From contig CAVQBA010000007.1 in assembly GCA_963710605.1 (NCBI GenBank), positions 320,001 to 384,000 on the forward strand: a stretch of DNA of 64,000 nt, given 5' to 3'. Under the pieces are notes generated by a model. The model had not been told where the DNA came from. It did not search any database and saw nothing but the letters and a program-made list of their open reading frames with translations. The position numbers and the translations under genes are program-made. Origin of the DNA: an uncultured cyanobacterium (GTDB taxonomy: Bacteria; Cyanobacteriota; Cyanobacteriia; Cyanobacteriales; Cyanobacteriaceae). Positions 47,863 to 59,774 of the stretch are shown piece by piece (the stretch's first letter is position 1; each line of letters begins with the position of its first letter).

Positions 47863-48315
47863 ATGTATATTGGCACGAAAGAAGCATCGACTTTATTAAA
47901 TATTTCTCAAAATAGACTCTCTCAGCTATTACTTCAAAAAAGAGTCAGAGGAGCTTACAAGTCTGGTGGTATTTGGATTATTCCCCTTTATGGTCAATTA
48001 CCTGAAATTATTGATGGTCAACGAGGAAAAAAAGGAACTTGGAATCGTCAACGTAAACAGCGTAAATCGATCGTTCACGTTAATTCTCAAAACATAAAGC
48101 ATAATAGTAAGCACAAAGATAAACCAAAACCTGTAATCATCGTCAAAGGTAAAGAAAAGGGTTGTGTGAGTTATTTAGAAATTCCCTGTGCTTCTCGAAT
48201 ATATTATCGGTCTGATAAGCCATTACATTCTGGAGCAAAAGTTTGGATTGAAGTAGATTGTCCTAATTTAATCAGTTTACAACCCAAAAATAATATTATG
48301 AATCATCTTGCCTAA
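47863..48315 (+). CDS. Helix-turn-helix DNA-binding protein (excisionase-like N-terminus)
   Basis: IGTKEAS.LLNIS..RL.QLL...RV.GAYK.G..W.IP; C-terminal HVN..I...PVI..GAKVWIE. Confidence 0.7.
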   Translation: MYIGTKEASTLLNISQNRLSQLLLQKRVRGAYKSGGIWIIPLYGQLPEIIDGQRGKKGTWNRQRKQRKSIVHVNSQNIKHNSKHKDKPKPVIIVKGKEKGCVSYLEIPCASRIYYRSDKPLHSGAKVWIEVDCPNLISLQPKNNIMNHLA

Positions 48316-49005: not shown

Positions 49006-50490
49006 TTAATCCTCTTGTTTCCATTCAGGTTTTGACTCAGCGGCTTTAGGAGATTGAAAATTTTCTGGTTTTTTCAATCGATATGACACTACATTACTCG
49101 GCTTTTGTGGTGCTACTTTTGGTTTAATCGCTTCTTTTCTTTTATCAGATGTTCTTTCTTCACTTGTGTCTTGTGCAATTAATTCATAAAGGATAGCTAA
49201 TTTATCGGTTTCTCCTTTTCGTAATATTCGCCCTAGTCTTTGGACATATTCTCGATTTGAAGCTGTACCTGAAATGATGACAGCTATTTTCGCCGAAGGC
49301 ACATCAACTCCTTCATTTAAAACATGAGAAGCAACGATCGTTTTATACTCTCCTGCTTTATACTTAGTTAAAATTAAATGACGCTCTTTCACTGGAGTTT
49401 GATGAGTAATGGCAGGTATTAAATATTCTTGAGAAATACGATAAACCGTAGCGTTATCGTTAGTAAAAATCAGCATCTTATCTGGATAATGCTTTTGAAT
49501 TAGTTCGGTTAAAACTTTTAATTTAGCAGTTGTACCTAAAGCTATTTCTTTCGCTCGACGATGGGCTAACATTGCTCTTCTTCCTGCTTGAGATGAGGCA
49601 CTAGCTTTAACAAACAATTCCCATCCTTTTAAACTTGATAGGTAGATATTGTTGTTACGTAAAAAAGTATTTCTAGTTTCGATCGCTTTGGTATATTCAG
49701 TTTTCTCCTCTGTAGTTAACTCAACCTTAATTGGTTTGACTTGATATTTAGCTAAAGTATTACCCGATAATTCCTGCGGTGTTTTACGATAAACAACCTT
49801 CCCGATTAATTGATTTAATTGCTGATGTGAGCCATCTTCTCTTTCAGGTGTAGCTGTTAAACCCAGACGATAAGGGGCGATCGATTCTTCGGCAATAACT
49901 CGAAAAAAATCGGTAGGTAAATGATGGCATTCATCGAAAATAAGTAAACCATAACTACTACCTAAAGTTTGAGCATGAATTGCCGCACTATGATAAGTAG
50001 AGATTAACACAGAAGTTCGATCGCTACTGCCTCCTCCTAATAAACCTAATTCGACGTTCTCAAAACAAGCCTCAATTTCTGCATACCATTGGTGCATCAA
50101 ATCTAAAGTTGGCACCATAATCAAAGTATTACGAGGAGTAGAAGCCATCGCTAGTTGGGCTAAATAGGTCTTTCCTGCTCCTGTAGGTAGCACAACTACC
50201 CCCTGACGATTTGCTTGTTTCCATGCTTCTAAGGCTTCAGTTTGATGGGGATATGGCTCTTTTGGCGATCGCATCACCATTTCTAAAGGAAAAAAGTCTT
50301 TAGCAACATCAATAAAGTCAATATTATTCTTTTGTAATGTTTCAACTAAAGCCCGATAATCTGTGGCTTGGATTCTAAATTTTTCGATTCTGTCATCCCA
50401 AACGGCGTAATCTATCCATGCTTTACCTTTTGGCGGTGGGTGTAATATTAATGTTCCTCGATCGTAACTTAATCTACTTTTTCGAGCCAT
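49006..50490 (-). CDS. SF2 DEAD/DEAH helicase (XPB/Rad25-like)
   Basis: LPTGAGKT, DECHH, GLTATPER, EGVDVP, QRLGRILR. Confidence 0.92.
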   Translation of the reverse strand: MARKSRLSYDRGTLILHPPPKGKAWIDYAVWDDRIEKFRIQATDYRALVETLQKNNIDFIDVAKDFFPLEMVMRSPKEPYPHQTEALEAWKQANRQGVVVLPTGAGKTYLAQLAMASTPRNTLIMVPTLDLMHQWYAEIEACFENVELGLLGGGSSDRTSVLISTYHSAAIHAQTLGSSYGLLIFDECHHLPTDFFRVIAEESIAPYRLGLTATPEREDGSHQQLNQLIGKVVYRKTPQELSGNTLAKYQVKPIKVELTTEEKTEYTKAIETRNTFLRNNNIYLSSLKGWELFVKASASSQAGRRAMLAHRRAKEIALGTTAKLKVLTELIQKHYPDKMLIFTNDNATVYRISQEYLIPAITHQTPVKERHLILTKYKAGEYKTIVASHVLNEGVDVPSAKIAVIISGTASNREYVQRLGRILRKGETDKLAILYELIAQDTSEERTSDKRKEAIKPKVAPQKPSNVVSYRLKKPENFQSPKAAESKPEWKQED

Positions 50491-50753
50491 GTTTAAATAA
50501 TTGATAATTAAAAATTTTAGTGCAAGAAGTTTGGTTACACAAGCATCAATTGTCAATTGTTTTATAGATCTATTTAGGACTATTCAATTTACTAGGAAAC
50601 AAGGCACTTAGACCTGATCATAGTGAGATTCACATAGTAGTCATCGATGTAGTATAAAATGAAATAGAAAGACCAAAAAAAATAGAAATTATTCAATCTT
50701 ACTTATGGAGAAAGAAATAGACAAATTTGCCCAAAAATAAGTTTAATTACAGC

Positions 50754-50870
50754 TATAGCATTCCTGAATCATTCATGAGAATTTACCATACATGAATAAC
50801 TTAGGAAATTGAAAAATTTGTTTATGAGTTACAAACTCAAACAAATATTTAACTATCTAGGATTGCTATA
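50754..50870. mobile_element. MITE-like element with TATAGCAWTCCT terminal inverted repeats
   Basis: TATAGCATTCCT ... AGGATTGCTATA (11/12 match), 117 bp. Confidence 0.65.
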
Positions 50871-52086
50871 TTAACTCAAAATCAGTAAATCTTTCTACAC
50901 AACGAGCAAAAATTTCTACACCCATACTTAAAACGGTCTCATCAAAATCAAAACGGGGGTGATGATGAGGAAAATCTAAACCTAAATTACTGTTAGCCGA
51001 ACCTAAGAAGAAATAACAGCCGGGTACTTTCTCTAAAAAGAATGACATATCTTCTCCCCCCATAGTTTGACATTCAGGCACTACTCCCAAAGGAGTTTCC
51101 ACCACTTCCAAAGCTATAGATTTAACTAGTTGAGTTATTCGAGGATGATTAATAACCGGAGGACATAAGCACCAATAATTTAATTCATATTGAGCTCTAT
51201 GACATTGACAAATTCCTGCAATAATCTCTTCTATTCTCTGCTTCATGAATTTTTTTAAGCCAAGATTAAAATAACGGACAGTACCACTTATTTTTGCTCT
51301 ATCAGCAATCACATTTAAGGCAGTACCAGCATGAAATTCACCGACAGTTACTACCGCCGAATCGATGGGCGAAACATTACGAGAAACTACAGTTTGTAAA
51401 GCATTAACAATTTCTGCACCGACTACCACAGAATCGATCGTTTGTTGAGGGATAGCTCCATGTCCTCCTTTCCCAAAAAGATTACATTTAAACGATTCCG
51501 ATGCCGCCATTAATGCTCCTTCTCTGACTCCCACAGTACCTAAAGGCAAATGATTCCACAAATGCAGACCGATAATAGCAGAAACATCCGGATTAGATAG
51601 TACCCCTTCTTCAATCATTGCTTTAGCACCACCTGCCCCTTCTTCTGCGGGCTGAAAGATAATTTTGACCGTTCCAGACCATTTATTGGTATTATGTGCC
51701 AGATAATAGGCAATTCCTAAGGCGATCGCTGTGTGTCCATCATGACCACAGGCGTGCATAATACCATCATGACGAGAACAATAGGATACTTGATTTTCTT
51801 CTTGAATTGGCAACGCATCCATATCGGCACGAATAGCTAAGACTTTACCTGGATTATTACTAACGATCGTAGCGACAACACCTGTTTTAGCAACTTGTGT
51901 CTGATGAGGTATATTCCATTGCTGTAATTTTTGAGCGATAAAACCAGCCGTAAATCGTTCCTGAAAACCTAATTCTGGATTTTGATGAAATTTTCTTCGC
52001 CATTGTGCTAGCTGAGGTTGTAATTCTAAAATTGAAGGGCGAATTTCTTGAGTGTTGACTTTTAAGAGATTATTTTTTCTTTCCAT
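50866..52086 (-). CDS. M20D family amidohydrolase (N-acyl-L-amino acid amidohydrolase type)
   Basis: HQNPELGFQE, RADMDALP, MHACGHDGH, FQPAEEG, GKGGHG, EDMSF, HHPRFD. Confidence 0.93.
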   Translation of the reverse strand: MERKNNLLKVNTQEIRPSILELQPQLAQWRRKFHQNPELGFQERFTAGFIAQKLQQWNIPHQTQVAKTGVVATIVSNNPGKVLAIRADMDALPIQEENQVSYCSRHDGIMHACGHDGHTAIALGIAYYLAHNTNKWSGTVKIIFQPAEEGAGGAKAMIEEGVLSNPDVSAIIGLHLWNHLPLGTVGVREGALMAASESFKCNLFGKGGHGAIPQQTIDSVVVGAEIVNALQTVVSRNVSPIDSAVVTVGEFHAGTALNVIADRAKISGTVRYFNLGLKKFMKQRIEEIIAGICQCHRAQYELNYWCLCPPVINHPRITQLVKSIALEVVETPLGVVPECQTMGGEDMSFFLEKVPGCYFFLGSANSNLGLDFPHHHPRFDFDETVLSMGVEIFARCVERFTDFELI

Positions 52087-52296: not shown

Positions 52297-52768
52297 TTAA
52301 AATTCTATTAGCATAGGCTTTTCTAACTCTTGAAGAATATTAGGAGAAATTGCAATGGAATAACTCAAATCACCTGCATTAAAATAAATTTTATCAACAT
52401 TGAGTAAATCTCGATCCATAACTAATTTAAGTCCAAAAGCTTTTGCTAATGGTGGGAGTTCTCCAAAATTACATCCCGTAACCTCTTTTAGCTGTTCTAT
52501 ATTTGCTAATCTCACACTTTTAGAACCAATAGCACGATTAATTTTAGATAGATCAGCTTTTCTTGTTCGCAGGAAGGGCGACAATAACAAATCCTTTTTC
52601 TCCTTGTTTTTTATACCGAACAAAAAGAGCTTTTGCTTGTTGCTCATATTTTGTACCTAGAGTTTGATGGTACTCTTCTGCACTACCTGCTGGTTCATGA
52701 TGAATTTCTTCGTATTCTACATGATTATCATCTAAATAGCATTTTACTAATTCTTTTACACTTTTCAT
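52297..52768 (-). pseudogene. YbaK/ProX-family aminoacyl-tRNA deacylase, split by +1 A in a run at 52558-52561 (possibly a sequence error)
   Basis: N-half YEEIHHEP...QAKAL..VALPANKK joins C-half ADLSKI..VRLA..TGCNFGELPPL..MD..IYFNAG; about 156 aa when repaired. Confidence 0.85.
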
Positions 52769-52804
52769 TTTTTTACCTAATAAAATTAACATTTGAAAAA
52801 TCAC

Positions 52805-54007
52805 TTAACCTCTTTTGAGGATGTGTGATGTAGAAATCTCAAAAAAATCTCCATACGAAAAACTAGAGAAATTTTCTGTAATTTGTCGCTCGAGACTGTG
52901 CAAGTCTAAGCTTTTTGGTGAATCGATCGCTGAGATGAAAACATTACCGGGAGAATAAGTAAGTACAACACGACCTGATATGTAGATACAAATTTCACGA
53001 ATAAACTCATCAATTGCTTTTTTTAATGGAGAATACCAGTGTCCGCCAACCACTAATTCTGTCCACTCATAATCTAATGATGTCTTTACTCTTAGCTCTC
53101 TTTGAGTCAGATTTGCTGTAGCAAGAGCTTGGAATGAACTTAATATCGCTTTTGCCCCCGGTGCTTCTCTTACTTCATGGTTTTTAATTTGCCCTAATGG
53201 TATGTCTTCAAGACCATTGAATCGACCAACACCATATAAATTACCGATAAAGTTTAATTCTTCTATTATCTGTAATAGTGTTTTATTTTCTCCGTTAATA
53301 GCGACTGGGAGTCCAGATTCAAAAGTTAATGATATGGTTTGATTCTTTTGAGGGCTATCGTAAGGGCTATTTGTCCAACTAAATGCTTCTTCAGGGACAA
53401 AATATTGCAGATTGTCGAGTGAACCGTTTTCAATCACTCTACCCCAGACATTTTGGTCAACACTAAAAATATTTTTTTCATCAAGTAATGATAATTTTTT
53501 TAGCTCTCTGAGTTTGGTCTCACGACAAATATTTTCTTTTAGAAAAGGGTTGCCAATATTTAACTCTGGAGCAAGAGTTCTGATGGATAGATTAAACCTC
53601 GAAGCACTATTTTGATGATAACAGCTAGTATGAACTATGCAGTCCGCTTGATATTGTCTGGCTATATCAACGGCTTTTTTTGCCATTAATGGTCGGCTCA
53701 AAGACGAACAAATCGGAAATACATTCTGATAGAGACAATTTACTTTTATACCTTGAGTAATAAAATCATCGACAAATTCATCGACAGCATTAATGTAAAG
53801 ATATTCAACTCCTAATAATTGGGCTTTTTTAGCAATGTCACTCTTTGGCGACGATGACTCTAAGTTAATGTGTAATGCAATTACGTCTAGATTATTTTGC
53901 ACTGCCCAATGCAAAAAATAGGTACTATCAAGACCTCCAGAATACAAAACAATAGACTTGTTTGTTTGTTTCATATCGTGTAAATTATCAATAAGACTAC
54001 CGACCAT
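52805..54007 (-). CDS. Argininosuccinate synthase-like ATP-dependent enzyme (divergent paralogue)
   Basis: PP-loop LYSGGLDS, SLSRPLMAK, FSVDQNVW, GVGRF..LE..K..EAPG. The aspartate loop TGKGNDQ is replaced. AGGAGG RBS before ATG 54007. Confidence 0.85.
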   Translation of the reverse strand: MVGSLIDNLHDMKQTNKSIVLYSGGLDSTYFLHWAVQNNLDVIALHINLESSSPKSDIAKKAQLLGVEYLYINAVDEFVDDFITQGIKVNCLYQNVFPICSSLSRPLMAKKAVDIARQYQADCIVHTSCYHQNSASRFNLSIRTLAPELNIGNPFLKENICRETKLRELKKLSLLDEKNIFSVDQNVWGRVIENGSLDNLQYFVPEEAFSWTNSPYDSPQKNQTISLTFESGLPVAINGENKTLLQIIEELNFIGNLYGVGRFNGLEDIPLGQIKNHEVREAPGAKAILSSFQALATANLTQRELRVKTSLDYEWTELVVGGHWYSPLKKAIDEFIREICIYISGRVVLTYSPGNVFISAIDSPKSLDLHSLERQITENFSSFSYGDFFEISTSHILKRG

Positions 54008-54118
54008 ATGTGACCTCCTAATTACTTTTATTTTTTTGTACGATGTTTTTGAGTCAATTAGGTAGAGCAAATGAGCAAAACCATTGCCCTACCTACCTAC
54101 TTGACTAATAAAAAACAA

Positions 54119-55134
54119 TTAAAAATTTAGAGTCCGAGGCGAGCAAAAGTGATCTCGCACAGACCATAAATCATTTTTAATTAGCGTTCTTTGCAACCAA
54201 CGACAATTATTACTAGCGAATTTAGATTCAAATGCTACTCGACCGTGGAACGATTTTCTGTTGTTTATTAACAACATATCTTTAGCTTCGAGAACAATAT
54301 TTTTCACAACAAAAGATTCAAGACAAATACTTTTAAATTCATCTAATGCTTTTTGAGCGTCACCATTAACACCTTTCATGTCTGTAAATTCAACATTAAA
54401 TTGCGGAACAATCAAATTACTACCTTCAATTACCGGCATCAATTTAGCAACAAACATCTCTTCTGTATCGCTATCTGTTTGAAATGACTCGGGAGGTGTA
54501 ACATAAAACTGTTTTTTCTTCAGCTTATCAATCAATTGACAGGATAAATTTTTAATAATGTCCTTTCCATTGACGATTTTAGTAACAACCTTTACTTTTG
54601 GTTCTTCCCTAAGGCATAACACTGCCAAGTGATCCGGGCTGTCACCGCCTAGGTGTACGTCCTCGCAGTGAAGTGGAAGAGCTCTAAGCGAACCCGCATT
54701 AGATATTTGCTCTATAGATTCTTCCTGAGGATAGAGATTATGTACTAATTGACCCTCCTTCTCATTCTTATAAGCAATCGGTTCACCCACCAACTGTGCC
54801 ATTGCTAGTAAAGAGCCTTCGCTAATTTTATTAATAAAATGACTATCATCATTGGGCTTCATATTTGCTACATTACCAATAGGAATATTTTTAATCAAGA
54901 GATACCCATCACCAGACAAATCTCGTTTGAGATTAATCACTTTTTCGTAAATACGATCTGGTAATTCTTTGCGAAAGACATGTAGTACTTCGTATAAAAA
55001 AGCTTCGAGGTTTTCGTTGGGATTAGATTTTATCTTTCTTAAAGATTGCTCTAAACTAAAACTTTCCTTATCTGATAGTTCTGCTACATTGTGTTCTGTT
55101 TTGGGAGTTACCGTAGTGTAGTTGTCAATAACAT
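54119..55134 (-). CDS. Clavaminate-synthase-like (TauD superfamily) Fe(II)/2OG dioxygenase; 5' end apparently frameshifted
   Basis: LPLHCED (HxE), L.INN...HGR, RWLQR. The frame stays open about 65 codons upstream of the GTG at 54940; the nearest ATG (55134) is off by one base. Confidence 0.82.
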
Positions 55135-55652
55135 TTTTTTAGTTTTTTTTTAGTTGTGTGTTCGTGTCATAAGTCCTTAATATTTTTCCTGGACAACTCC
55201 TTTATAATTTCTGGAAACGTAGAAAAACAACTCCAAACCTCGCAAAAACGTTACTTCATCTATTAGCCTAAAAGTCTTGTCTAGTAATAATTTCAACGTT
55301 CGATCGAAGTACCAAGTTATTATTGAAACGATAACTTGATATTTTTCTTTAATTCAGGTAACTATGACTTTTTTATGTTTTACTCATCAGTCATTAACGT
55401 TAATGAGTAGTTTTGTAATATTTCTTTACACTTATGATGAAAACTCAAAGGTTAGTTTGAATATTTGAGTGCTGTTGTATCCTTTGACTGAATTTGTCAA
55501 CTTAATTTTCAGGCAAAGCTTCTGATAAGATAAAGCCCAAAAATTTTAATCAACTTTTAGAAAATTAATATAAGTCTTAATTCAAATTAACTGTCGTCTA
55601 AGATATTTCGTTTAAATTCGATCGTCATCAGTTTGAACTGAGATACAATTAC

Positions 55653-58600
55653 TCAAATTTCCTCTAGCCACGTTTTTAAAGCTGACTCCAAATTTTCTTG
55701 TTCGGGTAAAAATCCTCTCAATGGAGGTTCGATTGGCTCTTGGGTAATAAAAGCAATAGCAACAACACAACCTTGTTGTAAAAATTGACAAATCTTTTCG
55801 ATCGTATCAGTTAAGACACAATTATCAATAATAATGCTTTTAATGGCAGAAGGTTGACGTGTTCTATTCTGATTTAAAAATTGACGTTTAAGTTCAGGTA
55901 ACGAATTAATTTCAGGAAGATCGAGATCTGAAAATGTACTCTCAAATAAGAGGTTAGAAAATTCTTGTCTTATTTCTTGTTCTTGGGTCAAATATGTCAG
56001 ACTAGAAGCGTCAATATAAATTAGTTCTGGATGCTCTTGTAAAAGTACAAAATCTGAATTTTTTCTATTTATAGAAATTATATTTTGAGATGAAGTTACT
56101 TGTTGAAAAAAGACTGGATATAAAATTTCGTGTGACATTACCCATAGTGCTTCCACAACAGACGATTGCACCCACTCAGATTGATCTTGAAGTAAGGGAA
56201 TCAGCTCTTGAATTGCTTTGTCACTTCCAATTTTCGCTAATGCTACCACAACAGACGATTGCACCCACTCAGATTGATCTTGAAGTAAGGGAATCAGCTC
56301 TTGAATTGCTTTGTCACTTCCAATTTCCCCTAATGCTGCCACAACAGACGATTGCACCCACTCAGATTGATCTTGAAGTAAGGGAATCAGCTCTTGAATT
56401 GCTTTGTCACTTCCAATTTCCCCTAATGCTGCCACAACAGACCGTCGCACTCGATCAGATTGATCTTGAAGTAAGGGAATCAGCTCTTCAATTACTTCTT
56501 CACTTCCAATTTCCCTTAATGCTGCCACAACAGACCGTCGCACCCACTCAGATTGATCTTGAAGTAAAGGAATCAGCTCTTCAATTACTTCTTCACTTCC
56601 AATTTCCCTTAATGCTGCCACAACAGACGGTCGCACCCATGTAGATTTATCTTGAAGTAAGGGAATCAGCTCTTTGATTGCTTTGTCACTTCCAATTTCC
56701 CTTAATGCTACCACAACAGACGATCGCACATCTTCAGATTGATCTTGAAGTAAGGGAATCAGCTCTTGAATTACTTCTTCACTTCCAATTTTCCCTAATG
56801 CTACCTGAACAGACCGTCGCACTCGATCAGATTCATCTTGAAGTAAGGGAATAAGCTCTGGAATTAATTCTTCACTTCCAATCTTCCCTAATGCTTTCAC
56901 AACAGACTCTCGCACATCTTCAGGTTGATCTTGAAGTAAGGGAATCAGCTCTGGAATTACTTCTTCACTTCCAATTTCCCCTAATGCTACCACAACAAAG
57001 TATCGCACCCACTCAGATTGATCTTGAAGTAAGGGAATCAGCTCTTGAATTACTTCTTCACTTCCAATTTTCCCTAATGCTTTCACAACAGACTCTCGCA
57101 CATCTTCAGGTTGATCTTGAAGTAAGGGAATCAGCTCTGGAATTACTTCTTCACTTCCAATTTCCCCTAATACTTCCACAACAGACCGTCGCACTCGATT
57201 AGATTCATCTTGAAGTAAGGGAATCAGCTCTGGAATTACTTCTTCACTTCCAATTTCCCCTAATGCTATCTGAACAGACAATCGCACCCACTTAGATTGA
57301 TCTTGAAGTAAGGGAATCAGCTCTGGAATTACTTCTTCACTTCCAATTTTCCCTAATGCTTCCACAACAAACGATCGCACCCGCTCATATTCATCTTGAA
57401 GTAAGGGAATCAGCTCTGGAATTACTTCTTCACTTCCAATTTTCCCTAATGCTTTCACAACAGACGATCGCACCGAATCAGATTGATCTTGAAGTAAGGG
57501 AATCAGCTCTTTGATTGCTTTGTCACTTCCAATTTCCCCTAATGCTTCCACAAGAGACGATCGCACATCTTCAGATTGATCTTGAAGTAATCCTTCCACA
57601 AGAGACGATCGCACCCATGTAGATTTATCTTTAAGTAAGGACACAAAAATAGGAACGGCTTCCTCGGTTCTTATCTTAATCAGAGATTGCTTTATAGGTT
57701 CTTTAATTCGATCGTCTTGAATATAGATAACAATTTTATCAGTAATTGCCTTTTTTAAATCTGCCGAACAATTTTCATATTCTGTAATACCTTCTAAGGC
57801 TAATAAATATAACTTAATTTGATAAAAATCAATATCGCAATCAATTCCCGATTCAAACCTTATCATTGATTGATATAAAGCCAGTTTATGTTCTTCTAAG
57901 TCTTTGTTATCCAACCCTAACCAAAATAAATAAACTTCTTTCCACTGGCTATCAAATAGACGATAACTTCCTGTTGCCACCGAAGATGAGGTGACGGGTA
58001 GTTGGTGATTCAAGAAAAATTTATGACTATCGATGGCTTTTGCGGCAAAAAACTCATGTAAAGTAGTGTGAGGAAAAGCATAAACTTTTTCGTCATTAGT
58101 AGGATATCTATCCACCAAATTTAACCAACCAAACTGACAAGCCAAAAGAAATTGTTCTTCAGAAATATGATCGAGAATAAAACTTTGACTCAAACGAAAA
58201 CGACTCGGATTATCCATTGCTTTTAAAGCTATTTTCGCCAATGCGGAAAACAAACTTCTTTGCTTTGTTTGAGTTAATGATGATTGATTTTGATTCCATC
58301 GCTCACTATACTTATTTACGAAACTTTGAAATAATTGAGCTTTGGCGGTAGGAAGCGTTTGGCGAACACTCCACATTTCACATAACAAACATAGATATAG
58401 CGGATTGCGAACTACCTCATTAATATTTTGATATTTTGTATCTTTTAATTTCTCGATTAATGAAGTTGCTGTAGTTAATTCGGAAAAATTACCAAGTTGA
58501 TTATTTTGTTTCCATTCATCAAAAAATTTGAGAATATATTCTTTTATCTGTTCATTATCAAATTGTTTGGCACGAAAAGTAGAGTAATTAGTGAGATTAT

Positions 58601-59774
58601 GATTACTTTGACTATCCCATGTTGTCAGTCTTGAGGCGATAATGATTTTGGCTTTCTTTTTAATCCAATCTTTCTCCTGACTTAATTTATCATTTAACCA
58701 AGAAGTTGGTTGACTACCAATTAGGGCAATTTCATCTAAGCCATCTAGTATAAAATAAATCTTACTTTGATTAAAATCATTGTTTAAAAACTCTTGAATA
58801 TGAGCAGTTTGGTCTTCTTCTGTCGGATATTTATCATCAATTTCCTGACGCAAAAGATTCTTGCAATATTTCTCAACAGAGCAGTCTTTTTCTTTTAATG
58901 AAGCGATACTAATATAAATAGGATAACCAATATCTTCTCTTAAAATATACTCAGCTATTTTAGTAAGTGATGTAGTTTTTCCTGCACCTGCTTCTCCGAT
59001 TAAACAGACATCTTTTTTGAAATCTGTAGTTAAGATAGTATCTAAAAATTCTTGAAATAAATATTCTTGAACAATAACATTTTTATCTTCTTGTAAATCA
59101 TCGTAATTTAAAGGATTGTTAGGTTCACAGTTTTGTTTGCGTGTGGGTTGGTTTTTTCTTTCTATTAATTCCAAACGCACAAAAATATCTAAGTCTCTGC
59201 CTTTCGGTAATAAAGGACGACGAATATTTTCTATTTGTTTGATTAAAATATTGTTGAAAATACTCTTCCAATCACTATTAACAGGAAAAAGTTTATTTTT
59301 GAAGTATTCAAAGTTTTTATCGATCGAATTACTATCTTTTAGGTCGTATTTTAAAGGTATATTAATTATGAAAAATCCTGTATCGTTCTTTTTTTTAAAT
59401 ATTGTCAAGCTAATTAACTGTAATGTATCTAACTCAATTAAAGCTTTTTTTATTTTCTGTTTATACTTTGTTAGTTCCTTATCCGATATTTCTGGCTCAT
59501 TTTTACAAATGACATGATATAGATTACCAATAATAAAACCTATTTCTGTTCCATCTTTTTTATTTTTACCTGAAATTTTTAAAGACGTTATTTGGCTTTG
59601 GTTTTGTTCTAATTTCAGAAAAGGAACAATATTTCTTCTTGACTGCTCGTATTCTCCTAAATCACTACTTATATCTATTTCACTTTGTTGATTTTGATTT
59701 ATCTTTGTAAAATATTTTTGGAGGATCTCGAATATAGCACTAAGTATTTCTAAACAGGGCAAAGTATTCGTCAT
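55653..59774 (-). CDS. NACHT NTPase with HEAT-repeat array (NLR-like STAND protein)
   Basis: Walker A LIGEAGAGKTT, Walker B FILDGLDE, NPLYL, F.H.TLHEFFAA, 31-aa HEAT repeats. Confidence 0.92.
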   Translation of the reverse strand: MTNTLPCLEILSAIFEILQKYFTKINQNQQSEIDISSDLGEYEQSRRNIVPFLKLEQNQSQITSLKISGKNKKDGTEIGFIIGNLYHVICKNEPEISDKELTKYKQKIKKALIELDTLQLISLTIFKKKNDTGFFIINIPLKYDLKDSNSIDKNFEYFKNKLFPVNSDWKSIFNNILIKQIENIRRPLLPKGRDLDIFVRLELIERKNQPTRKQNCEPNNPLNYDDLQEDKNVIVQEYLFQEFLDTILTTDFKKDVCLIGEAGAGKTTSLTKIAEYILREDIGYPIYISIASLKEKDCSVEKYCKNLLRQEIDDKYPTEEDQTAHIQEFLNNDFNQSKIYFILDGLDEIALIGSQPTSWLNDKLSQEKDWIKKKAKIIIASRLTTWDSQSNHNLTNYSTFRAKQFDNEQIKEYILKFFDEWKQNNQLGNFSELTTATSLIEKLKDTKYQNINEVVRNPLYLCLLCEMWSVRQTLPTAKAQLFQSFVNKYSERWNQNQSSLTQTKQRSLFSALAKIALKAMDNPSRFRLSQSFILDHISEEQFLLACQFGWLNLVDRYPTNDEKVYAFPHTTLHEFFAAKAIDSHKFFLNHQLPVTSSSVATGSYRLFDSQWKEVYLFWLGLDNKDLEEHKLALYQSMIRFESGIDCDIDFYQIKLYLLALEGITEYENCSADLKKAITDKIVIYIQDDRIKEPIKQSLIKIRTEEAVPIFVSLLKDKSTWVRSSLVEGLLQDQSEDVRSSLVEALGEIGSDKAIKELIPLLQDQSDSVRSSVVKALGKIGSEEVIPELIPLLQDEYERVRSFVVEALGKIGSEEVIPELIPLLQDQSKWVRLSVQIALGEIGSEEVIPELIPLLQDESNRVRRSVVEVLGEIGSEEVIPELIPLLQDQPEDVRESVVKALGKIGSEEVIQELIPLLQDQSEWVRYFVVVALGEIGSEEVIPELIPLLQDQPEDVRESVVKALGKIGSEELIPELIPLLQDESDRVRRSVQVALGKIGSEEVIQELIPLLQDQSEDVRSSVVVALREIGSDKAIKELIPLLQDKSTWVRPSVVAALREIGSEEVIEELIPLLQDQSEWVRRSVVAALREIGSEEVIEELIPLLQDQSDRVRRSVVAALGEIGSDKAIQELIPLLQDQSEWVQSSVVAALGEIGSDKAIQELIPLLQDQSEWVQSSVVVALAKIGSDKAIQELIPLLQDQSEWVQSSVVEALWVMSHEILYPVFFQQVTSSQNIISINRKNSDFVLLQEHPELIYIDASSLTYLTQEQEIRQEFSNLLFESTFSDLDLPEINSLPELKRQFLNQNRTRQPSAIKSIIIDNCVLTDTIEKICQFLQQGCVVAIAFITQEPIEPPLRGFLPEQENLESALKTWLEEI
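56146..57640 (-). repeat. 93-bp coding tandem repeats (HEAT): 15 full units plus truncated first and last
   Basis: Near-invariant TCTTGAAGTAAGGGAATCAGCTCT core every 93 bp. Confidence 0.92.

Follow-up and report, generated by a model that had tools for sequence, protein, structure and literature searches.

A group of three genes in a stretch of 64,000 nt from an uncultured cyanobacterium (contig CAVQBA010000007.1 of assembly GCA_963710605.1) was analysed in this study. The whole stretch is called the window here, and coordinates given without the name of a contig or locus refer to it. The three genes, coding for a dioxygenase, an ArgG-like enzyme and a YbaK-like protein and together called the trio, are read as a cassette that was acquired horizontally, makes a non-canonical amino acid under the guard of a tRNA deacylase and works through the steps proposed below; a probability of about 0.55 is given to this reading. 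Among its grounds are the gene order, which is kept in other genomes, and the active site of the ArgG-like enzyme, which departs from that of argininosuccinate synthase and resembles that of the fungal nitrile synthetase ArtA. The trio spans positions 52297-55138 on the minus strand, with all three genes co-oriented, and consists of the following features.

54119..55138, minus strand: clavaminate-synthase-like Fe(II)/2-oxoglutarate (Fe/2OG) dioxygenase (Pfam TauD; frame open for 339 codons)
52805..54007, minus strand: ArgG-derived PP-loop enzyme of 400 aa, intact (Pfam Arginosuc_synth and Arginosuc_syn_C; KNHEVRE clade)
52297..52768, minus strand: free-standing deacylase-like gene of the YbaK/INS superfamily, split in the assembly (Pfam tRNA_edit in both pieces)

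Open reading frames (ORFs) on the minus strand are located at 54119..54940 (273 aa), 52805..54070 (421 aa), 52553..52804 (83 aa) and 52297..52647 (116 aa), and the start of the ArgG-like gene was taken from the database gene call P0001 (400 aa). The spacer from the dioxygenase stop (54119) to the ArgG-like ATG (54007) is 111 nt and that from the ArgG-like stop (52805) to the YbaK ATG (52768) is 36 nt; the common orientation and the gaps of about 110 and 36 bp given in a preliminary description of this DNA are therefore confirmed. The same description named a CAS-like dioxygenase, an ArgG paralogue and a YbaK tRNA deacylase, and these family calls were borne out by Pfam and NCBIfam, the last at the level of the superfamily. 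Its remark that the trio was not recognised as a described pathway also stands, as no description was found in the literature searched, with most subscription papers and supplements lying outside the search.

Gene order in other genomes

A protein search covering 5.8 billion sequences yielded, at E <= 1e-20, 921 proteins related to the ArgG-like one. The closest were metagenomic (P0002-P0004, 60-62% identity), and named relatives were from Actinokineospora, Nocardia, Streptomyces and Micromonospora (35-43% identity). Alignment A1 was used to scan for further loci, of which 37 were found in genomes and 20 in metagenomes; the neighbouring genes were called there by tblastn with the window proteins. 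Gene calling by the longest ORF was unreliable in high-GC loci, and the contexts given for these come from tblastn and from Pfam scans of chosen frames.

The order dioxygenase, ArgG-like gene, YbaK was found in L014 (a metagenome-assembled genome of Actinomycetes), L016 (Actinokineospora spheciospongiae) and L017 (Kordia jejudonensis), and the same ordered trio was present in the metagenome contigs L051, L052 and L069. Since the gene order recurs in six other loci and in other phyla, the arrangement is more than chance, and the trio is supported as a conserved, co-transferred cassette. The preliminary description had made its proposal depend on such conservation, which is thus found. In six further cases an ArgG-like and a YbaK match from the database have a longest contig of equal length (10839, 11408, 6972, 24588, 204949 and 2082); as a mere proxy for a shared contig, this may point to further linked pairs.

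Loci of the KNHEVRE type, named after a motif of the ArgG-like protein that is described below, numbered 44. At least 900 nt of upstream sequence was available in 39 of them, and the dioxygenase was located directly upstream of the ArgG-like gene in 32 of these 39 informative loci. A match to a nonribosomal peptide synthetase (NRPS) was present in 24 of the 33 KNHEVRE-type loci with at least 5 kb on each side. In A. spheciospongiae the trio abuts an NRPS of >3100 aa. In Kordia it is flanked on one side by a stand-alone A domain and on the other by an A-T protein that contains eight carrier domains, and its neighbours include a C-A-T-C-T-TE NRPS, KAS III, PhyH, a cupin, a thioesterase and an ABC exporter. 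The protein that follows the Kordia trio (L017 12067-15450) has one adenylation domain and eight phosphopantetheine-binding stretches, an unusually long tandem carrier array. Streptomyces-type loci are without YbaK; they contain an A-T-C and an A-T-R gene that diverge from each other, and one more TauD dioxygenase.

The trio of L014 was found beside purine-catabolic genes (uricase and amidohydrolases) and the housekeeping thrS, which follows it. No transporter or catabolic partner was conserved across the trio loci. The cassette of L014 (11696-13696) stands directly beside thrS, the sole copy in that genome, and that of L048 (2650-4632) lies 5 kb from the only thrS of its genome, with the same layout in the near-identical metagenome contig L054 (1518-3347); the genomes of L014 and L048 represent distant actinobacterial lineages. 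A resistant second copy of ThrRS beside the trio was considered and ruled out, as thrS is the sole copy in both of these genomes.

Distribution among cyanobacterial relatives

The genome itself is cyanobacterial, with 8 phycobilisome matches. The ArgG-like paralogue was found in none of 40 cyanobacterial relatives, and the 39 with a match carry canonical-type argG only (24-36% identity). There were also no cyanobacterial members among the 37 genome loci. The absence of the paralogue from all 40 relatives suggests horizontal acquisition. A YbaK homologue and a dioxygenase homologue were each found in one of the 40 relatives, G006 in both cases. YbaK-like genes were present in 9 of 401 sampled cyanobacterial genomes, the genome studied here included, and the others were 23-31% identical. 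Among 400 cyanobacterial and 400 actinomycete genomes taken at random, only distant YbaK-like matches were obtained, and no dioxygenase neighbour was found besides that in G006.

In G006, which belongs to the same family as the window genome, a stand-alone VioC-like Fe/2OG dioxygenase (346 aa) is paired with a YbaK-like protein (181 aa) at G006:C2:31337-33478 (L094 9337-11478), and no ArgG-like gene or NRPS was found near this pair, which is divergent from the genes of the trio. The minimal logic of a hydroxylase plus a deacylase is shared with the Alf cluster described below, the deacylase being of the YbaK type.

The ArgG-derived enzyme

The ArgG-like protein has both Pfam domains of ArgG (Arginosuc_synth, 98.5 bits; Arginosuc_syn_C, 141.3 bits) and the overall ArgG fold, and the PP-loop SGGLDS, the S-x-D motif, the Arg of R(F/L) and the E of 'LED' are kept. 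However, it falls below every NCBIfam cut-off for ArgG (PRK00509, 273.7 vs 334; TIGR00032, 232.9 vs 268.2; PRK13820, 226 vs 512), its GKGND motif is altered, it is placed on a separate, well-supported branch, and a canonical argG is present elsewhere in the genome (C4:431087-432179). Both the paralogous nature of the gene and the separate canonical argG had been anticipated in the preliminary description. Judged by its sequence, the protein is not an argininosuccinate synthase.

Its closest relative outside ArgG is ArtA. According to the accessible part of PMC13060819, which cites and discusses Zeng et al. 2025 (ACS Catal.) and Kishimoto et al. 2025 (JACS), ArtA/NitB of fungal auranthine biosynthesis perform the amide-to-nitrile step only. 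In the motif alignment, the canonical HGCTGKGNDQVRFE is represented by HTSCYHQNSASRFN in the window protein and by HTANLSQNSLRRLN in ArtA, and the canonical KSREIYE by KNHEVRE and KVLEVRE, respectively; the motifs of the window protein are HQNSASRF, KNHEVRE and FSVDQNVW. The stretch Y-H-Q-N-S-A-S-R-F-N of the window protein aligns to GKGNDQVRFE of 4u7j, with Q132 and N133 invariant in the clade. The G-K-G-N-D-Q-V-R-F-E motif of ArgG is presumably responsible for the binding of aspartate and citrulline. The amide-contacting residues of ArtA are Q146, S197 and D199 (PMC13060819, accessible part). They correspond to residues 175, 226 and 228 of the 9LEI chain, with a constant offset of 29 counted on the alignment, and they align with Q132, S182 and D184 of P0001, all of which are invariant in alignment A1. 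A C-N ligation leading to an Arg or citrulline analogue of the guanidino or amidino type, as suggested in the preliminary description, is disfavoured by the replacement of GND by QNS and by the relationship to an amide-to-nitrile synthetase.

In a sequence search of solved structures, the best match was the mycobacterial ArgG 4u7j (204 bits), and the nitrile synthetase 9LEI/9LEH (176 bits) came ahead of five other ArgGs. The predicted model of the protein (pLDDT 89.6) was superposed best on ArtA by Foldseek, with TM-scores of 0.85-0.92 and a root-mean-square deviation (rmsd) of 2.3-2.6 A, compared with an rmsd of 2.8-5.7 A to ArgGs. The tree was built from 98 rows, i.e., the loci whose matches reach 300 aa, 25 taken from the first 47 matches of the protein search, 10 canonical ArgG matches and the window protein. 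In this tree 19 canonical ArgGs were separated from all QNS proteins by a branch of length 1.44 with support of 100, and ArtA falls on the same side of this long branch as the window clade. The window protein grouped with P0002-P0004 (support 99) inside a clade of 14 rows (support 93) that contains Kordia, Actinokineospora, L014, L051/L052 and L048/L054. It is concluded that the window protein belongs to a third ArgG-derived clade with ArtA-like changes in the active site.

With ArtA this clade shares the ArgG-derived PP-loop fold, QNS for GND, EVRE for EIYE and the equivalents of the three amide-contacting residues. It differs in having KNH where ArtA has KVL, in its lower score to ArtA (176 bits, vs 260 for bacterial ArtA-like proteins) and in being paired with a dioxygenase and sometimes with a deacylase, both of which are missing from the ArtA-like loci. 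The bacterial ArtA-like proteins (L042-L046, L061-L068) are from Frankia, Protofrankia, Actinocrispum, Saprospiraceae and metagenomes. They have the motifs SQNSLRRF and KV[LQ]EVRE, match ArtA (9LEI) with 260 bits vs 132 to ArgG, and are probably nitrile synthetases.

The dioxygenase and the deacylase

The dioxygenase matches Pfam TauD (PF02668) with 36.2 bits against a cut-off of 27. Its best solved relatives are AsnO (2og5, 6e-19, 72 bits), the Lys 3-hydroxylase KDO1 (6f2a) and OrfP/VioC. Alignment A3 shows no variation at H157, E159, H298 and R313, and the H-x-D/E...H triad and the 2-oxoglutarate-binding Arg of the clavaminate-synthase-like family are thus present. The TauD fold family, the H-x-E...H triad and the C-terminal Arg are shared with AsnO, KDO1, VioC/OrfP and GntD; the difference is that the window protein is far under every NCBIfam equivalog cut-off, the best matches being GntD, VioC and CS1. 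An Asp that binds the side chain of the substrate in AsnO and KDO1 is matched in the alignment by an acidic residue, which is Glu in proteins of the trio type and Asp in those of the Streptomyces type. The conserved acidic residue would fit a substrate with a side-chain N-H group.

The two pieces of the YbaK-like gene match Pfam tRNA_edit (PF04073) with 24.2 and 59.2 bits (the latter for the C-terminal piece) at a cut-off of 25.5, and the intact orthologues score 79-88. For TIGR00011 (YbaK), of which the cut-off is 153, the C-terminal piece of the window scores 40.1 bits and the intact orthologues 40-52. The best solved relative is 3op6, an uncharacterised protein, and the match to YbaK of H. 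influenzae (1dbu) has 28 bits. The subfamily comprises 108 database clusters at E <= 1e-10 (45-99% identity). By these scores the protein is a member of the PF04073 superfamily outside TIGR00011 and represents a distinct subfamily. It is like the YbaK/ProXp trans-editing factors in having PF04073 as the single domain, a length of about 155 aa and lysines in which the orthologues do not vary, and unlike them in its low TIGR00011 score and in its gene context, which is biosynthetic and not housekeeping.

Free-standing tRNA deacylases have been reported as markers of clusters for non-canonical amino acids, in which they protect the producer (Millar et al. 2026, PMC13149037, accessible text). In that text, the Fe/2OG methionine beta-hydroxylase AlfC is paired with the AlaX-type AlfB in a four-gene cluster of 134 genomes, and the (3R)-arginine hydroxylase FuzA is paired with FuzB. 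Deacylases described as guarding the producer in the accessible parts of the sources are FthB, BesG, AlfB and FuzB (PMC13149037, PMC11295145). FthB is a fluorothreonyl-tRNA deacylase related to ProXp-ST1 (PMC11295145, accessible part; McMurry and Chang 2017 cited there) and is therefore a member of the YbaK superfamily, showing that such a guard can come from this superfamily. The AlaX family was mined by Millar et al. (2026), and the words 'YbaK', 'argininosuccinate' and 'nitrile' occur 0 times in the main text (PMC13149037).

With the Alf, Fuz, BesG and FthB clusters the trio shares a free-standing deacylase beside an Fe/2OG hydroxylase of free amino acids and a pairing that is conserved across genomes. 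Like them, it has the mark of a deacylase co-localised with amino-acid-modifying enzymes, here with the order kept in the six further loci. It differs in the additional ArgG-derived enzyme and in the distinct YbaK subfamily. The view in the preliminary description that the deacylase serves for self-protection against misincorporation therefore follows a published principle, and it is supported by the conservation of the trio together with these precedents.

Reading frames and assembly quality

The two indels mentioned in the preliminary description are present in the assembly, one in the start region of the dioxygenase and the other in an A-run of YbaK. The ATG at 55170 reaches a TAA after 6 codons, and that at 55134 is in a frame other than that of the dioxygenase; the dioxygenase frame is open from 55138, and the first start codon in it (ATG, GTG or TTG) is the GTG at 54940. 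The frame is nevertheless alignable with the Kordia orthologue from residue 1 of the latter. YbaK is split by one extra A in an A4 run at about 52558-52561, and both halves align end to end with the intact orthologues of Kordia, Actinokineospora and L014 (52-68% identity).

For the background of such defects, 200 ORFs of at least 250 codons from 20 stretches of the relative G014 were compared with this genome, and the 130 ORFs with a match of at least 45% identity were taken as the denominator. Among these, 112 were intact, 6 partial and 12 flagged; 8 of the flagged genes were multi-frame and 7 had a stop inside the aligned stretch, 3 genes showing both features. Among those flagged are thrS, argS, aroA, tldD, sbcD and a cshA-like helicase. 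Both thrS (C1:267629-269339) and argS (C1:218680-220426) are the only copies in the assembly and are split over two frames, as is the canonical argG. The junctions of the split genes resemble single inserted bases, mostly outside long homopolymers. Since the loss of both tRNA ligases would not be viable, the assembly (7 contigs, completeness 84.9%) must carry indel errors, any frameshift in it is a possible assembly error, and the defects of the trio cannot be read as pseudogenisation. The preliminary description proposed to resequence the two indels and to express the repaired genes; the defects to be repaired do exist in the assembly, and they may be errors of the assembly itself.

In mnmG (C5:65648-67528) and an egtD-like gene (C4:317672-318658), which are otherwise well conserved, an in-frame TGA stands opposite an Arg of the protein of the relative. 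The change would be from CGA to TGA, a substitution rather than an indel. Real gene decay may therefore coexist with assembly errors in this genome.

Proposed pathway and alternative explanations

Family membership, motif states, conservation and gene contexts are what was observed; the substrates, the products and the specificity of the deacylase are what we infer in the following steps. The dioxygenase would hydroxylate a free L-amino acid, probably at C-beta, as its relatives AsnO, KDO1 and VioC/OrfP do. The ArgG-derived enzyme would then use ATP to adenylate a side-chain carbonyl oxygen (of a carboxamide or ureido group), as suggested by its family and motifs. Loss of AMP would give a nitrile, which is the most likely outcome because the aspartate site is lost and the active-site substitutions of ArtA are present; capture of an amine, giving an amidine, is the alternative. 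By analogy with the precedents, the deacylase would hydrolyse tRNA mischarged with the product or an intermediate and so shield the proteome of the producer. The cassettes of Kordia and Actinokineospora are inside NRPS clusters, and the amino acid there is therefore probably a peptide building block. The window cassette stands alone, without an adjacent NRPS. A stand-alone antimetabolite system that rules for biosynthetic gene clusters would miss, as imagined in the preliminary description, is consequently not the general case: two of the three other trio loci with 10-kb flanks are inside NRPS clusters, and L014 and the window are without an NRPS near the trio. A narrower version of the proposal, in which the trio makes a beta-hydroxylated nitrile amino acid or a cyclic-amidine proline mimic guarded by a YbaK-type deacylase, and the wider pair of dioxygenase and ArgG-like enzyme, found for the most part next to NRPS genes of actinomycetes, marks an unrecognised family of bacterial nonribosomal peptides with nitriles or amidines, is put forward tentatively and is rather unlikely in all its details.

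Several results weigh against the cassette as proposed. The deacylase gene is found downstream in just 6 of the 44 KNHEVRE-type loci, and no NRPS was found within 10 kb of the trio in L014 or in the window. The best NCBIfam model of the ArgG-like protein is NF038212 (argG_rel), a model suited to the ArtA-like clade, with 286.9 bits against a cut-off of 425; proteins of the KNH type or clade (L017, L035, L018, L016 and P0005) score 267-309 bits and the ArtA-like L045 and L046, both partial sequences, 399-413 bits. The clade profile gives 272 bits to ArtA vs 300 to ArgG and the protein itself 176 vs 204, and over the whole sequence the similarity to ArtA thus does not exceed that to ArgG. Canonical ArgG likewise conserves S182, D184 and the Arg of the R(F/L) motif, which on their own are therefore no argument for a nitrile; the diagnostic features are the Q and, along with it, the missing D and Y. 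At the ArtA-like loci, the dioxygenase was found in none of 10 with at least 900 nt upstream and YbaK in none of 8 with at least 500 nt downstream, and neither was seen in any of 11 such loci; the two clades may therefore carry out different chemistry. Lastly, the dioxygenase of the window is without a start codon and its YbaK is frameshifted, i.e., two defects in 2.9 kb vs a background of about 12 flagged genes in 130.

These two defects are also the starting point of the explanation that the cassette is a dead remnant in this genome, acquired with or severed from an NRPS cluster and now decaying, which is a real possibility, if on the improbable side. Their excess over the background and the CGA-to-TGA stops of mnmG and egtD make some real decay possible, and the only NRPS of the genome is not adjacent but on another contig. 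Against this, single-base insertions split argG, aroA and the only thrS and argS in the manner of assembly indel errors, each of the two affected trio genes aligns over its full length with intact orthologues once a single base is disregarded, and the ArgG-like gene is intact. Decay had been the favoured reading, and it was weakened once the sole thrS and the sole argS were found to be split in this way. The ArgG-like gene might also have been kept as a functional reserve copy of argininosuccinate synthase, since it is intact and the canonical argG is split in the assembly. This is highly improbable given that the paralogue is under all ArgG equivalog cut-offs and has lost the aspartate-site motif; the frameshift of argG is moreover of the same single-base-insertion kind as those of thrS and argS and therefore probably an assembly error.

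It is unlikely that the ligase logic of ArgG has been retained, with a ureido oxygen being adenylated and joined, within one molecule or between two, to an amine other than aspartate to give an Arg or citrulline analogue with a guanidino or amidino group, which would be a free antimetabolite here. The ArgG fold and PP-loop, the retained residues on the citrulline side (S-x-D, the Arg of R(F/L) and the E of 'LED') and the missing NRPS within 10 kb in the window and L014 are in accord with it. Intramolecular capture of an amine after adenylation would moreover lead to a cyclic amidine, which if made from Gln would be a proline mimic and would suit the tRNA(Pro)-linked YbaK superfamily. However, the change of the Asp site from GND to QNS and of the EIYE Tyr to Arg is exactly that of ArtA, the NRPS clusters enclose two of the three other long-flank trio loci, and ArtA, placed by way of the bacterial ArtA-like rows, is the sole characterised enzyme on that side of the tree and carries out dehydration, not ligation (PMC13060819, accessible part). 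A cassette for the detoxification or salvage of an imported amino-acid analogue, with the enzymes degrading the analogue and the deacylase clearing the mischarged tRNA, would resemble CtdA, a stand-alone deacylase of canavanine users that acts against an exogenous analogue (PMC10018355, PMC12449066, accessible parts). The placement of the L014 trio beside purine-catabolic genes and housekeeping thrS instead of NRPS agrees with this explanation, but the NRPS matches in 24 of the 33 long clade loci, the embedding of the trio between NRPS genes in L016 and L017 and the lack of a conserved transporter or catabolic partner across the trio loci make it quite improbable.

Should the cassette reading be correct, the discovery of amino-acid pathways guided by deacylases, for which the AlaX family has been mined so far, would extend to a YbaK subfamily. 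There would also be a bacterial ArgG-derived clade with ArtA-like active sites in dozens of actinomycete NRPS clusters, for which no report of the chemistry was found. Nitrile or amidine side chains are useful as warheads of protease inhibitors, and to our knowledge they are almost unknown among bacterial peptides. Auranthine was the only nitrile-containing peptide natural product known before the report of the 2026 preprint itself, according to the accessible part of that source (PMC13060819). Intact test cases that can be cultured or synthesised (Kordia jejudonensis, Actinokineospora spheciospongiae and Streptomyces spp.) would be better than the doubtful window copy. For annotation, it is necessary that the ArgG-like gene does not carry the name argG.

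Neighbouring genes and other observations

The trio is flanked by two genes, and its position between an amidohydrolase and a NACHT gene, as in the preliminary description, was verified by Pfam.

50866..52086, minus strand: M20 amidohydrolase, second copy in the genome, with doubtful membership in the cassette (Pfam M20, TIGR01891)
55653..59774: NACHT/HEAT gene (NACHT, HEAT and NCAB1 domains)

The M20 gene of the window is 78% identical to a copy on C4 (C4:1182898-1184094). M20 copies of five relatives (L106-L110) are 76-85% identical to the C4 copy and 73-77% to the window copy, and no M20 match was found by tblastn at any other locus, the trio loci included. The amidohydrolase, which the preliminary description left as a possible member, is thus outside the conserved set and was ruled out as a general feature of the cassette; here it is a second, more divergent copy.

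Arrays of period 7 were detected by Tandem Repeats Finder at 16 sites of the window and at none between 44586 and 61404, which agrees with the earlier statement that there are no heptamer repeats at the trio. Promoter-like sites in the scanned region numbered 9 vs 14.8 expected, and there was one terminator-like site (54089-54073) vs 1.7 expected. The heptamer-free stretch of 17 kb holds the trio, the NACHT gene, an ORF of 150 aa (47863-48315), for which no Pfam match was obtained at E <= 1e-4, and an XPB/ERCC3-type helicase with a damage-recognition domain (49006-50556), the last two being just beyond the M20 gene. This stretch may be an acquired island. The NACHT protein has 1373 aa and a C-terminal NCAB1 domain, and a tandem of a 93-bp unit x15.6 (56137-57590) encodes its HEAT repeats.

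The only NRPS of the genome (C1:131990-141519) has three A domains and ORFs of 788 and 2295 aa. A link between it and the cassette was considered and rejected, as it is on another contig and its similarity to the Kordia NRPS, about 32%, is generic.

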